From Octopus sinensis (lineage: Eukaryota), in contig NC_043023.1 in NCBI RefSeq assembly GCF_006345805.1, forward strand, positions 1 to 64,000: a stretch of DNA of 64,000 nt, read 5' to 3'. The position numbers and the translations under genes are program-made. Positions 4,197 to 61,640 of this stretch are shown in pieces. Within the stretch, counting starts at the first letter, position 1; every line of letters starts with the position of its first letter. The notes under the pieces were generated by a model, which was not told where the DNA came from, made no database searches, and worked only from the letters and a program-made list of their open reading frames with translations.

Positions 4197-5150
4197 TATA
4201 TACATTATATATATATACATATATATATATATATAATATATACATATATATGTATATATATATATATATATATAATACATATATATATATATATATATAT
4301 ATTATAATATATATATATATATATATATATATATATACATATATGTCTCCGTAAACAATAACTCTCTACTTGAGTGGGCCATAGTGCCCAAATTCTGACT
4401 TGAAAGACTTCACCAGGTGGTGCTATTAAGTTAGACATGGCCTGGGCCAATAATGGCGGAAACCTATCAAAGTATCAAATTATACATATATATATATATA
4501 CATATATAATATATTATATATATATATATATATATATATATATACATATATATATATAATACATATATATATATATATATATATATTATATAATATATAT
4601 ACATAATATATATATATATACATATATATATATATACATATATATATATATATTACATATATATATAATATATACATATATATATACATATATATATATA
4701 TACATATATATATATATATACATTATATATATATATATATAATATATATATATATATATATATACATATATATACATATATATATATACATATATATATA
4801 TATATATATTATATGTATGTATGTATATATATATATTATATATATATATATATATATTATATATATATATATGTATGTATGTATGTATATATATATATAT
4901 ATATATATATATATATATATATAATATATATACATATATATATATATACATATATATATATACATATATATAATATATATACATTATATATATATACATA
5001 TATATATATATACATATTATATATATATATAATATAATATATTATATATATATACATATATATATATATTACATATATATATATATATATATATATATAT
5101 ATATATGTATGTATGTATATATATATATAATATATATATATATTATATAT
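4197..5150. repeat. (TA)n microsatellite field with a ~130-bp non-TA island at 4346-4479
   Basis: Direct inspection. Confidence 0.95.
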
Positions 5151-5288
5151 AGAGGGCATAATTATACATACATGCCAGGAGGCATTATATATACTTGCCA
5201 AACGCTAAGAGGGACAATCAGTCATTTCTACCAAAAATATTACTAATCCACCGAATGCAATTTTTCAAAGTAAGACATTTAAAAATAT

Positions 5289-5336
5289 AGGCCTGTATCA
5301 CAGTGATTTCATACTTACGTAATCATCAGCAGGCCT
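5289..5336 (-). ncRNA. Type I hammerhead ribozyme (480-bp unit, copy 1)
   Basis: Minus strand: aggccug-CUGAUGA-u uac guaa gua u-GAAA-ucac u guga-UA-caggccu; 7-bp stem I, intact core, near-palindromic stem III. Confidence 0.85.
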
Positions 5337-5766
5337 GAATGTATTATAAATAAACAACGACCCTGCCTCGCTTAAGCCGAACAGCTAACTGATCAACATC
5401 AACGAAGCACATGGGTGAGTTTATATATTACATCCGGGTGAATGGCAAACTTTTACAAAATTGCATTTCGGGAGAGGAAAAGTTTTTTCGGAATAAAAAT
5501 TTTGCAATTAAGGACAACTACTTAATAAGGAAAACTTAACAAGAAATTGTCAGGTAGATAGCGTAAAAACCTCATAAGAGAAAAAATTTCGAAAATAATT
5601 ATTCTTATTGAACATATTAATTTATATATAGAGGGCATAATTATACATACATGCCAGGAGGCATTATATACTTGCCAAACGCTAAGAGGGACAATCAGTC
5701 ATTTCTACCAAAAATATTACTAATCCCACCGAATGCAATTTTTCAAAGTAAGACATTTAAAAATAT

Positions 5767-5814
5767 AGGCCTGTATCACAGTGATTTCATACTTACGTAA
5801 TCATCAGCAGGCCT
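5767..5814 (-). ncRNA. Type I hammerhead ribozyme (480-bp unit, copy 2)
   Basis: Identical motif to 5289-5336. Confidence 0.85.
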
Positions 5815-6272
5815 GAATGTATTATAAATAAACAACGACCCTGCCTCGCTTAAGCCGAACAGCTAACTGATCAACATCAACGAAGCACATGGGTGAGTTT
5901 ATATATATTACATCCGGGTGAATGGCAAACTTTTACAAAATTGCATTTCGGGAGAGGAAAAGTTTTTTCGGAATAAAAATTTTGCAATTAAGGACAACTA
6001 CTTAATAAGGAAAACTTAACAAGAAATTGTCAGGTAGATAGCGTAAAAACCTCATAAGAGAAAAAATTCGAAAATAATTATTTCTTATTGAACATATTAA
6101 TTTATATATAGAGGGCATAATTATACATACATGCCAGGAGGCATTATATACTTGCCAAACGCTAAGAGGGACAATCAGTCATTTCTACCAATGTGCTTCG
6201 TTGATGTTGATCAGTTAGCTGTTCGGCTGGGGGCTTAAGCGAGGCAGGGTCGTTGTTTATTATAATACATTC

Positions 6273-6320
6273 AGGCCTGCTGATGATTACGTAAGTATGA
6301 AATCACTGTGATACAGGCCT
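6273..6320 (+). ncRNA. Type I hammerhead ribozyme (480-bp unit, copy 3)
   Basis: aggcctg CTGATGA ttacgtaagtat GAAA tcactgtga TA caggcct read directly on +. Confidence 0.85.
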
Positions 6321-58048: not shown

Positions 58049-58127
58049 AACGAACAACCACCCACACACAACACCACCAGAACACATAAAAATTTATCAC
58101 ATATCACCAACATTGCACCACACACTA

Positions 58128-58790
58128 AAATCCTTCTATCCCAAATGCGTTATCCCGACCCCACCGTCACTAAACTAGAGCGCATCCGCTTCCGCTTCTT
58201 GTGGAAAGGAAACGTTCCGATGGTCAGGCGATCCGTTTGCTGTCAACACCCGCTGAAAGGAGGGCTGGACATGCCGTAGTTGATGATGCGCAGACGCGCT
58301 GAGACTGCGATTTCTCCGGCTCTACGTAGACGACGGTGAGCAGGTGTGGTCGCCGTTTGTGCGGCGTGCTTTCCCGCAACTCGTGTCCATGACCAAGCTG
58401 CAAACGTGGATCAAAAAGAGGCCGAGGAAGGGCGAATGGCACCGCGAGTGTCGCGTTGCTCTTCAGCAACTCTGCCGTCCTGGGTCGAATTTAAGCGACT
58501 GCATCACTACGAAAGCGTTTTATAGGGGATTAGTGGAGGGAGGTATGGCGACAATCTCGGGACGAACCTGGGCGTCGACGAGGAATACCTGACCCGCCTA
58601 TTCAAGACGACTTTCGGGCCGGGACCTATGGACAATTTCCAGAGATCCCTGGCCTGGCAGTACTATCGAGAAGCGCTACCTGTTCGGGATAAGCTCTATA
58701 GACATGGTTCGATAAACACGGGGCCGACCTACCCGAGATGCGGTCAGAGCGACGAAACCGTTCTGACGCACTCGTGCAGTGTCCAACCAT
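58128..58790 (+). mobile_element. C-terminal part of Tx1/L1 ORF2 (thumb and zf-RVT), frameshifted
   Basis: FRFLWKG...VRRSVCCQHPLKGGLDMP; TTKAFYRGL; LAWQYYREALPVRDKL...PRCGQSDETVLTH. Confidence 0.85.
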
Positions 58791-59890
58791 ATTTATATAT
58801 ATATATATATATATATATATATATATATATAATATATAATGTAATGGAATAAGGATTTTTAATCCAAGCAGGTACCTTACAAGTACTCTAGTATTGTTCA
58901 GGTTTTGGTTGAAATCTTATTTATGTGTGTATGTGTGTAGATGTGTGTATGTGTGTAGATGTGTGTATGTGTGTAGATGTGTGTGTGTGTGTGTTCGTGC
59001 GCACACACATACACAAAGTTATGAGAAGATAATTGCTGCGTTGCCTTAAAAATAATACAGGATACACACAAACACACACACACACACACACTGTATCATG
59101 TATCAACCAGACTATGTTCTACAGTACTGATCACAGTGCACTTCCACGCCTTGTAGATCTTGAATTATGCCACCCCGCTGGCAGCTGACTAGACAGGCAG
59201 CTCAACACTCCTCTCGAACAGAGTGCTAGTCCGTCGCAGGCTTACCCATTTATAGCTGAGAGGACTGGAGTAACGTGAAATGAAGTATTTTGCTCAAGAA
59301 CACACGCACTGCTTGGTTCAGAAATCAAAACCACAATCTTGCGATCGCGAGTCCAACACCCTAACCACTAGGCCACGCGTCATCACATACACACACGCAC
59401 ACATGCACGCACGCACACATACGTATATGTATATATTCATACTCTCTCTCTCTCTCTCTCTCTCTCTCTTTACTCTCTTTTACTTGTTTCAGTCATTTGA
59501 CTGCGGCCATGCTGGAGCAACACCTTTAGTCTAGCGAATCGACCCCGGGACTTATTCTTTGTAAGCCCAGTACTTATTCTATCGGTCTCTTTTGCCGAAC
59601 CGCTAAGTGGCGTGGACGTAAACACACCAGCATCAGTTGTCAAGCAATGCTAGGGGGAAAAACACAGACACACACACACACATATATACATATACATATA
59701 TATACACATATACGACAGGTTTCTTTCAGTTTCCGTCTACCAAATCCACTCAGAAGGCATTGGTCGGCCCGGGGCTATAGCAGAAGACACTTGCCCAAGA
59801 TGCCACGCAGTGGGACTGAACCCGGAACCATATGGTTGGTAAGCAAGCTACTTACCACACAGCCACTCCTGCGCCTATATCTATATGTAT

Positions 59891-60042
59891 TTATTAAAAA
59901 GGAGCAAAAATATCACAAAAACTGTTACTCAGAGTTTCACGTCGGACAGTTTTGTTTAGAATTCTAAACAAAACTGTCCGACGAACGGAAACGTGAAACT
60001 CTGAGCAACAGCTTTTGTGATTGTTTTGCTGCTTTTTAATAA
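59891..60042. repeat. ~150-bp imperfect palindrome centred on gaattc (59959-59964); each arm carries a hammerhead-like motif
   Basis: Right arm ctgt CCGACGA acggaaacgt GAAA ctctgag CA acag; left arm (minus) has TA at the cleavage site but lacks stem II. Confidence 0.85.
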
Positions 60043-60629
60043 AGCATATTACTCTACCTCTAGTATTCGAGTACTATATTTTCCACCTTGTTTCGCATTT
60101 ATGTGCTTACTCTGCCATATCTATATGTGTGCTTTTATTTCTTATACATATCTATCTATCTATCTGTCTATCTATCTATCTATCTATCTATCTATCTATC
60201 TATCTATCTATTTATCTATCTATCTATCTATCTATCTGTATGTATGTGTGTGTGTGTGTGTGTGTGTTGTGTGTGTGTGTGTGTGTGTGTGGAGGCGCAA
60301 TGGCCTAGTGGTTAGGGCAGCGGACTCGCGGTCGCAGGATCGCGGTTTCGATTCCCAGACCGGGCGTTGTGTGTGTTTCTTGAGCGAAAACACCTAAAAG
60401 CTCCACGAGGCTCCGGCAGGGGTGGTGATTCCTGCTGTACTCTTTCGCCACTCTTTCTCCCACTCTTTCTTCTGTTGGCCTGCTCGCTTAGCCAGCGGGG
60501 TGGCGTCATTTGAAGGCTAAAACATTGTGACCAGCGATGTGTAACAACATCTGATGGTCTGGTCGGTCACGTGATCACATACATACATACATACATATAT
60601 GCATGCATATATATACATACATACACAAA

Positions 60630-61640
60630 TTGAGGGAATGAAGCAGGTAAAATCCAGGCTACATATGTTTCCCATTTTGCAGAACCTCGGAAATAATAAC
60701 TCAACAAGGAGTACTCGCTAGCTACTCATAATCTCCGGGGCTAATTCCATAATATTTCTGGTAGTCTGTATAGAGACGACGTCCTGTTTGCGATCCAGAA
60801 CTTTAGTAACCGCGAAATAGAACATCTTAGGAAAAGAATCGGTATTTAAAAAAAAACAAAAAAACGTTGGCCTTAGCATCTCTTTCAGTTACAGTATTAA
60901 AACAGTTAATTTTCTAGATGTCACTCTAGATTTACAAAACAACGCATTCTACCCTTACCATAAACCCGGTGAGAAACTTTACTATGTTAACTTTTCCTCC
61001 AATCACCCTCCGCCATCTGTCCTAAATTCCATCGTGGACAGCGTATCTTATTGGACCTCATCCCTATCCGCCAGTAAAGAAATGCTTGAATATTATAATT
61101 CTGCCCCACAACGCGCCGGATATAAAAATTCGATTGAATACATCCTTATTTGGAACGATCCTTCCTGCACTAAACCTGGCACCACAGATATATCTCCCAT
61201 ATTCCACCTTTCCTCATCTCCCTAAATTTTACCGTAGGAGCAAACCTAAGAGGAACTCCACCCACCCTGTGATCCTGAATCCCAAATCCATCACTGCCCA
61301 TCGAAATCCACACCAGTGTGCACTTCAATACCCCCAGCTACACTCGGGTAACCCTCTAAACCGGAATAAACTGGCCAGGACACGTGACGTTATCTGGTTC
61401 CATCTTCACTTTGCCCTTAATGTTCAGACCAGATCACCCAAACTCTTCTTTGCTCTACATGACAAACATTTCCCTAAGTCTAGTCCTCTTAGAAAAACCT
61501 CCAACACCCAATCGATTAAATTTTCCTACTCCAGCACAAGTAACATTAGTGCTATAATCCGACGTCTGAACAATAAGAAACTTGGGAATCAGCAATTAGT
61601 TAACTTTAACCACAGTAATACAACTCACCCTAACCTTCGC
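60630..61640 (+). mobile_element. Penelope-like element RT remnant (YRDD type)
   Basis: LYRDDVL; VNFLDVTLDL..FYPYHKP..YVNFSSNHPP; RDVIWFH...DKHFPKSSPLRK..NTQSIKFSYSSTSNISAII. Confidence 0.85.

Follow-up and report, generated by a model that had tools for sequence, protein, structure and literature searches.

Metazoan non-long terminal repeat (non-LTR) retrozymes are non-coding tandem units that carry one type I hammerhead ribozyme each, according to the available text of PMC7229834 and bioRxiv 10.64898/2026.07.22.740005. Penelope-like elements (PLEs) have been proposed to copy retrozyme circles into tandem complementary DNA (cDNA) (PMC7229834, PMC7761336), and the retrozymes have been described as related to, or derived from, pseudo-long terminal repeats (pLTRs) (bioRxiv 10.64898/2026.07.22.740005). 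PLEs leave inverted 5' copies, tails and non-autonomous head-to-tail derivatives and show a bias for (TA)n (PMC8557442); the commonest arrangement of their copies is head-to-head, with palindromes at the junctions (PMC3846280), and hammerheads have been reported paired on opposite strands, 100-700 bp apart (PMC4209133). Here, we analyze two tandem arrays of hammerhead-bearing units, array 1 (5143-7073) and array 2 (13110-21666), in the first 64,000 nucleotides of contig NC_043023.1 of Octopus sinensis (assembly GCF_006345805.1; hereafter the window). This AT-rich stretch of animal DNA is densely packed with microsatellites and transposon remnants, in a repeat landscape that looks octopus-like; the tests covered it, public runs containing the array 1 family, and protein relatives. 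We regard it as probable that both arrays are tandems of non-LTR retrozymes, set head-to-head through PLE priming on both nicked strands of (TA)n tracts.

As far as the available descriptions go, the arrays share with metazoan non-LTR retrozymes the non-coding tandem units with a single type I hammerhead, a GC content below 45%, self-paired predicted circles, occurrence as dimers to multimers and co-occurrence with PLEs. Their units of 478-510 nt compare with 170-400 nt for invertebrate retrozymes and fall inside the 51-972 nt range of the vertebrate survey, and array 2 differs from the known retrozymes in its ~70-nt stem II and an internal A-tract. Neither head-to-head arms nor (TA)n anchoring of arrays is described for retrozymes in the available text of PMC7229834 or the main text of the bioRxiv report, the supplements of which might mention inversions. 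These features recall instead the endonuclease-bearing (EN+) PLEs of the Neptune and Hydra types (PMC8557442, PMC3846280, PMC4209133, available text), with which the arrays share a tandem plus inverted 5' copy, head-to-head orientation and (TA)n targets. A palindromic element at 59890-60043 has their one-sided tail and palindromic junction, and the window also holds minimal hammerheads with a palindromic helix III and opposite-strand hammerhead pairs, as do these PLEs. Unlike EN+ PLEs, however, the arrays encode no protein, hold several whole units per arm and do not resemble the PLE 3' region found in the window. The MRC1-type elements of Chlamys (PMC8557442, available text) resemble the arrays in being non-coding, multicopy head-to-tail insertions with a microsatellite bias that are attributed to PLEs, but most of them have no hammerhead, and their 3' ends are shared with autonomous partners, whereas a partner of the arrays was not found in the window.

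Two divergent arrays of hammerhead units

Array 1 consists of a left arm on the minus strand (5143-6191; 2.2 units of 478-479 nt, starting at unit position 63 and ending at 152) and a right arm on the plus strand (6191-7073; 1.8 units, starting at 362 and ending at 281). The units are non-coding with a GC content of 33%, and the type I hammerhead is complete in three of the four copies (5807-5774 and 5329-5296 in the left arm, 6280-6313 in the right), the fourth, at 6760-6792, lacking C3. Apart from the junction itself and one swapped pair beside an indel, the units differ by 1-2 nt indels only, with no real substitution among the ~4 units; a 7-nt insertion lies at 6225-6231, in the right arm near the inversion junction at 6191. 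Array 1 is compatible with copying from one (circular) template and looks like a nearly fresh insertion event. Because the arms start (63 vs 362) and end (152 vs 281) at different unit phases, and because the flanks are unmirrored and unique beyond their TA tracts, with the TATG units of both tracts on the same strand, array 1 is not a simple fold-back; that origin, which would have mirrored both ends and flanks, was rejected.

The same geometry recurs in array 2, where a left arm on the minus strand (13110-13574; 0.9 unit, from unit position 162 to 131, hammerhead at 13331-13241) meets a right arm on the plus strand (~13575-21666, starting at unit position 55) with 16 predicted cleavage sites spaced 499-510 nt. 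The junction (13572-13593, plus strand) is an exact 11-nt tandem duplication, 3 nt of which are common to the left arm, and on the far side a 100-N assembly gap (21667-21766) hides the right end. The non-coding unit is ~505 nt long with a GC content of ~35% and carries a type I hammerhead with a ~70-nt stem II. GAAA is kept in 14 of the 16 plus-strand copies, and the 3' side of stem II before it reads TATAG in eight, a TATAC type in three and a TAGAC type in three, the other two having broken cores; these variants may differ in activity. Inside each unit lies a variable-length A-tract (for example 14209-14262), its longest run measuring 9-29 nt; a GGTGGC/GCCACC stem closes the tract, and all four possible allele combinations are found at two positions on the 3' side of this stem. 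A second hammerhead-like motif, CTGCCGA, is present in every unit and was rejected for its core mismatch; it was counted 16 times because the unit repeats.

The units of array 2 diverge by 2.1% substitutions, and 17 minor alleles are common to non-adjacent units, where random error would give 2.8, with lags of 5 and 7 units predominating. Given this divergence and these shared alleles, a single circle cannot explain array 2, and the pattern can come from subsequent duplication or exchange, from multiple variant templates or from mis-stacked assembly reads. Long arrays had originally been attributed, as a possibility, to rolling-circle reverse transcription of circular RNA; such an origin fits the short array 1 and misfits the long array 2, the reverse of that suggestion.

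The variation in array 2 also bears on a DNA-level origin, in which hammerhead satellites from old pLTRs would have expanded by unequal exchange and been inverted through break repair (template switch, microhomology joining) beside fragile (TA)n, with no new retrotransposition. The spread of the array 2 units, the alleles shared at lags 5 and 7 and the four combinations at adjacent positions all favor it, as do the duplications at both junctions, which are also typical of end-joining. Local pLTR amplification is furthermore proposed in the available text of bioRxiv 10.64898/2026.07.22.740005. However, insertion fits array 1 better, with its identical units and both 3' ends in one unmirrored TA/TATG tract, and the strong circle-level folding described below suggests selection on RNA. 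We consider a DNA-level origin unlikely.

Arm ends and (TA)n tracts

The three visible outer ends (5143, 7073 and 13110) all pass straight into (TA)n, namely the tracts at 4481-5151 and 7071-7196 that flank array 1 on the left and right and the tract at 13033-13111 to the left of array 2, with ~9, 3 and 2 nt in common; the expectation that the visible outer ends of both arrays lie in (TA)n is borne out. Since 4.3% of the window is no more than 5 nt away from a (TA)6 tract, two independent array events give ~0.002, a post hoc figure. A (TA)6 tract lies at most 150 nt downstream of three of the seven other cassettes, against 8% by chance (p~0.016, for a hand-picked set in which two belong to one family), and none of the 14 ends of a control dispersed repeat has (TA)6 that near, the nearest being 228 nt away. 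To the left of array 2 there is a direct repeat (12287-12474 and 12849-13035; 84% identity), the second copy of which stops where the (TA)40 tract of the array begins, while the first has a short TTAT there and continues; the insertion may thus have brought about or accompanied growth of the tract.

No arm ends at the cleavage site and every arm reads through it, and the template was therefore circular or an uncleaved multimer. The right arm at each junction carries a small slip (the 7-nt insertion and the 11-nt duplication). Both arrays are inverted head-to-head with every visible end in (TA)n, which is the structure of a PLE-type insertion.

Twin priming on one RNA molecule by a long interspersed nuclear element (LINE) yields an identical divergent geometry through 5' inversion and should place the right-arm start close to the left arm's 3' end. 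Several LINE remnants lie in the window, and LINEs are named as alternative mobilizers in the available text of PMC7229834. In array 1, however, right-arm start and left-arm end are 210 nt apart, and in array 2 they overlap by 76 nt, which does not fit strict twin priming; moreover, no end carries poly(A) or a LINE-like tail. That a LINE rather than a PLE copied these RNAs seems to us very unlikely. For a PLE, a purified protein is reported to cut and extend both strands of AT-rich DNA, to initiate within its RNA and to be a predicted dimer, and the same study finds start site and target to lack homology (PMC11167929); the 2-9 nt shared at the array ends consequently need not be priming homology.

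Hammerhead motifs and predicted circles

A scan for the hammerhead core with its three stems, in which at most two core changes were allowed, returned 11 matches scoring at least 8 against a mean of 0.1 per shuffle (10 shuffles). They represent five families: array 1, array 2, and single sites at 38845-38880 (minus), 39872-39901 (plus) and 59978-60007 (plus). Four further sites are degenerate, three of them found by eye (22540-22565, 26665-26699 and 35249-35300) and one scoring at chance level (45139-45170), so that the original prediction of about a dozen distinct hammerhead-like cassettes was an overcount. The bare pattern CTGANGA..GAAA matches 15 times where 4.1 are expected, and matches beyond the supported and degenerate sites lack stems; among other candidates, 35961 was rejected for the same lack. 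A second scan missed array 1, which is a limit of its stem II rule. Exact-pattern scans gave no match in viral contigs, metagenome contigs or prokaryote genomes.

When whole monomers were folded as circles, all four were more stable than shuffles, with z of -4.8 to -6.3 in the ribozyme sense and -4.2 to -5.0 in antisense (30 shuffles each), and the predicted circles are 60-66% paired. The arrays have these features of non-LTR retrozymes: tandem type I hammerhead units, low GC, a length of 478-510 nt and self-paired predicted circles.

PLE remnants and the palindromic element

The two PLE coding remnants that had been predicted are both present. On the plus strand at 39201-39695 lies a GIY-YIG endonuclease remnant with two stops (Pfam PF01541, E 2.7e-5, above cut-off), which has a Cx4CxxC linker and a CCHH-type motif and is 58% identical to P0151, a 698-aa protein with reverse transcriptase (RT) and endonuclease (EN). 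In its best relatives, P0151 and P0153, DKG is accompanied by a linker that is Cx4CxxC or similar to it and by an endonuclease at the C-terminus. The plus-strand, pLTR-like hammerhead 39872-39901 lies 180 nt downstream, in the 3' region of the remnant, and past it a microsatellite starts after ~60-100 nt. On the strength of its linker and GIY-YIG domain, the DKG and C-terminal EN of its relatives and the downstream hammerhead, this remnant can be assigned to a putative Neptune-like PLE.

The second remnant (60640-61600, plus strand) is a frameshifted RT C-terminal/thumb region in which the endonuclease part is not seen. A full HMMER scan gave 1673 protein matches at E<=0.001, while a word-index protein search gave none, and Pfam had no match on the remnant or on nine of ten long relatives. 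The Hydra clade is marked by an RWK-like motif, DKT, a CxCX5C linker and a C-terminal EN without CCHH, and almost all of its families insert into (TA)n (PMC8557442, available text). The remnant itself does not reach the RWK-like, DKT, CxCX5C or C-terminal EN region; among the ten long relatives examined, DKT is found in nine, RW[KR] in eight and CxCX5C in five, and by these marks of its relatives it is probably Hydra-like. The window thus holds remnants of two (TA)n-preferring PLE types, both dead fragments; as neither array's unit can be aligned beyond chance with the pLTR-like region or the cassettes, they show co-occurrence only. A 13-nt look-alike common to both array units was not significant.

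The palindromic element at 59890-60043 has a perfect 44-bp center (59940-59983) between arms that are 91% identical (59890-59942 and 59991-60043), with a one-sided extension to ~60120. Its right-arm hammerhead (59978-60007) is damaged, CCGACGA replacing CTGANGA and U16.1 being changed to C, and so does not have the intact core of an active hammerhead (CUGANGA/GAAA/UH); the left-arm copy is half deleted, with 10 nt of the core gone. The element, which had been placed between short TA and (TCTA)n tracts, is not TA-anchored: neither end has a (TA)6 tract, and ~100 nt of extra sequence precede (TATC)n at 60149. The view of three structures with one geometry stands for the two arrays, left arm minus and right arm plus, and for the palindromic element in orientation, but its junction is of another type. 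It resembles the palindromic junctions and tails of rotifer PLEs (PMC3846280, available text) and is probably an older, dead PLE-type fragment with a hairpin junction of the self-priming type.

The array 1 family in public runs

Public runs were searched for the array 1 family only, with a query (5905-6370) of about one unit that has the 6191 junction in its middle. Part of it is contained in 20 of the 24 runs listed, from 11 studies with eight organism labels and at no more than 60% of words, and none of the listed carriers is on record as RNA. Four runs were aligned, X1, X3, X6 and X7, with 588, 3211, 579 and 24 contigs, respectively, summed depth not being taken as copy number. By these data, the family is an abundant, variable and dispersed repeat. 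No variant of at least 5% falls within the hammerhead core in X1, X3 and X6, and a common variant at 6318 replaces G-C by G-U in one pair of stem I. No (TA)n was seen at the loose ends of aligned contigs among those listed, 117 others lying outside the listing.

Where the window inverts, the four aligned runs show ordinary head-to-tail continuity, with the 7-nt insertion nearly absent, and the junction at 6191 is therefore locus-specific; it is bridged by none of the 32 pieces listed from these runs (4401 others lay outside the listing), which counts against our reading and is one of the points that would be expected if the inversions were chimeric-read or assembly artefacts, joining two real arrays or folding one back. 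Since the runs are probably from other animals, the junction is neither confirmed nor refuted by them. The many 1-2 nt indels, as in a noisy long-read consensus, and the gap that terminates array 2 also speak for an artefact. On the other hand, neither the arms of array 1 nor its flanks, unique beyond the tracts, are mirrored, both arms carry the same alleles at positions where these are rare in the aligned runs (for example at 6152, where another base makes up 88-100% of depth), and two unrelated families show the same geometry. An artefact appears highly improbable to us.

Run X7 is RNA by guess only; one of its contigs bridges the predicted cut site, and contigs cannot show circles. T>C makes up 9 of 15 changed places in X7 vs 0 of 6 in X3, 0 of 5 in X6 and 2 of 7 in X1, and six of the X7 places, at 6270-6292, are absent from the other three runs. 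By eye, one loose end of X7 has seven of seven differences as T>C and another eight of nine, after allowing for two common variants; these two ends have opposite polarity relative to the ribozyme. The clustered changes take in the antisense of the CUGAUGA core. The clusters look like possible A-to-I hyper-editing by ADAR on both strands, in few, low-depth contigs. The CCGACGA core of the palindromic element corresponds to CTGATGA with a C at each of the two T positions, as in the changes of X7. A broader scenario, which we find doubtful, would link these observations: a PLE dimer would prime rolling-circle copying double-endedly on (TA)n, with hairpin insertions, the read-through transcripts of which would form double-stranded RNA; ADAR would hyper-edit both strands of it, braking the family. 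In that scenario, antisense templates that had been edited might even be copied back into DNA.

Other features of the window

Among the remaining hammerhead sites, 38845-38880 (minus) is a minimal PLE-type hammerhead with an ACGT palindromic helix III and an unpaired A ahead of stem II, and is not TA-adjacent. The degenerate minimal hammerhead at 26665-26699 (minus) lacks one A (GAA) and belongs to a ~200-nt element that (TA)n flanks on either side, and 22540-22565 (minus), also between (TA)n tracts, is a more degenerate copy of the same family. At 35249-35300 (plus) a degenerate hammerhead with a poor stem I lies in an element that ends in (TA)n at 35408, and the weak match at 45139-45170 (plus) scores 7.0, at chance level (shuffled mean 0.4, maximum 3).

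The repeat that bears the hammerhead at 38845-38880 (38228-38940) contains an inserted LINE-like fragment (38311-38832) that ends in (ATG)n and is bordered by a direct repeat of 9 nt. A ~310-nt element bounded by (CA/TG)n and (TA)n is present in two copies (88%), at 22008-22388 and 37322-37691; they were rejected as hammerheads, CTGAAGA being present and GAAA and stems absent. Another pair ending in TA is found at 4135-4344 and 35347-35553. A broken LINE-like element at 56483-58849 has a zinc-knuckle ORF1 (Pfam zf-CCHC) and RT-end remnants, and a LINE-like RT end at 49100-49952 gives a weak zf-RVT match, below cut-off. A peptide encoded at 11399-11680 (minus) resembles what we take to be a mariner transposase remnant, and a 201-aa open frame at 41660-42262 has no Pfam match. 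Self-complementary stretches at 28506-28676 (93%) and 51389-51493 (80%) have no hammerhead matches.

Discussion

The evidence from both arrays points to retrozymes inserted with the geometry of PLEs: the predicted retrozyme identity, the (TA)n anchoring of the arrays and their PLE-like head-to-head arrangement hold, and match what is described in the available text of PMC8557442, PMC3846280 and PMC4209133. Mobilization by a PLE fits this geometry and the (TA)n targets and can be suggested, not established, as no unit aligns with the PLE 3' region of the window. A plausible course of events would begin from the hammerhead core and stems, the strongly self-paired predicted circles, the divergent arms and the 3' ends in (TA)n seen at this locus. 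As in known retrozyme biology, the units would be transcribed, would cleave themselves at the predicted sites and would be ligated to circles. A PLE with a C-terminal endonuclease, of the Neptune or Hydra type, would then prime cDNA on both target strands, starting at internal A/U-rich points of an RNA that may be a circle or an uncleaved multimer, and end-joining would unite the two cDNAs 5'-to-5', leaving small local duplications. Array 1 would be a young product of one template, and array 2 may have undergone further DNA-level expansion or mixing, or may derive from several templates that were variants.

Besides the unbridged junction at 6191, several observations weigh against this reading. 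Two independent insertion events support the footprint, the right end of array 2 is lost in the assembly gap, and a target-site duplication is unreadable in (TA)n. TA tracts favor breakage and assembly error, and four of the seven other cassettes are not near TA. The array units have no alignment beyond chance with the PLE 3' (pLTR-like) region, with each other or with the other cassettes; in 42 pairwise comparisons of units and cassettes, one reached p<=0.05, and neither array was involved. As for the ribozymes, the base of stem II is mismatched in array 2, and an Rfam scan of the window gave 109 matches, nearly all microsatellite noise, with no hammerhead at E<=1. None of seven isolated hammerhead stretches folds better than shuffles (z -1.42 to 0.79), and isolated motifs do not reach the active shape under minimum free energy folding. 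This failure is weak counter-evidence, because metazoan type I hammerheads with a weak helix III, functional in dimers only, are described in the available text of PMC4209133; when Xenopus dimers were assayed, however, eight of nine failed to cleave (bioRxiv 10.64898/2026.07.22.740005, available text).

The surprise is moderate, because each ingredient is published: 5'-inversion, (TA)n bias and PLE mobilization of retrozymes are all in print. In a search that most subscription papers lay outside, we found in print no retrozymes in head-to-head arrangement, nothing relevant on ADAR editing of retrozymes and no octopus hammerhead ribozymes of this sort, nor did we find a PLE footprint on retrozyme arrays themselves. 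The locus contributes junction-level evidence on an open question, within the limits of two events, unverified junctions and no partner element.

The enzyme that spreads animal retrozymes has so far been inferred from co-occurrence and pLTR similarity, whereas insertion junctions are a direct footprint of the inserting enzyme. For a PLE, that footprint consists of arms in head-to-head orientation whose 3' ends lie in (TA)n, with arbitrary start phases and copying through the cleavage site. Two unrelated retrozyme families that carry it would make the question testable, both genome-wide and in vitro.

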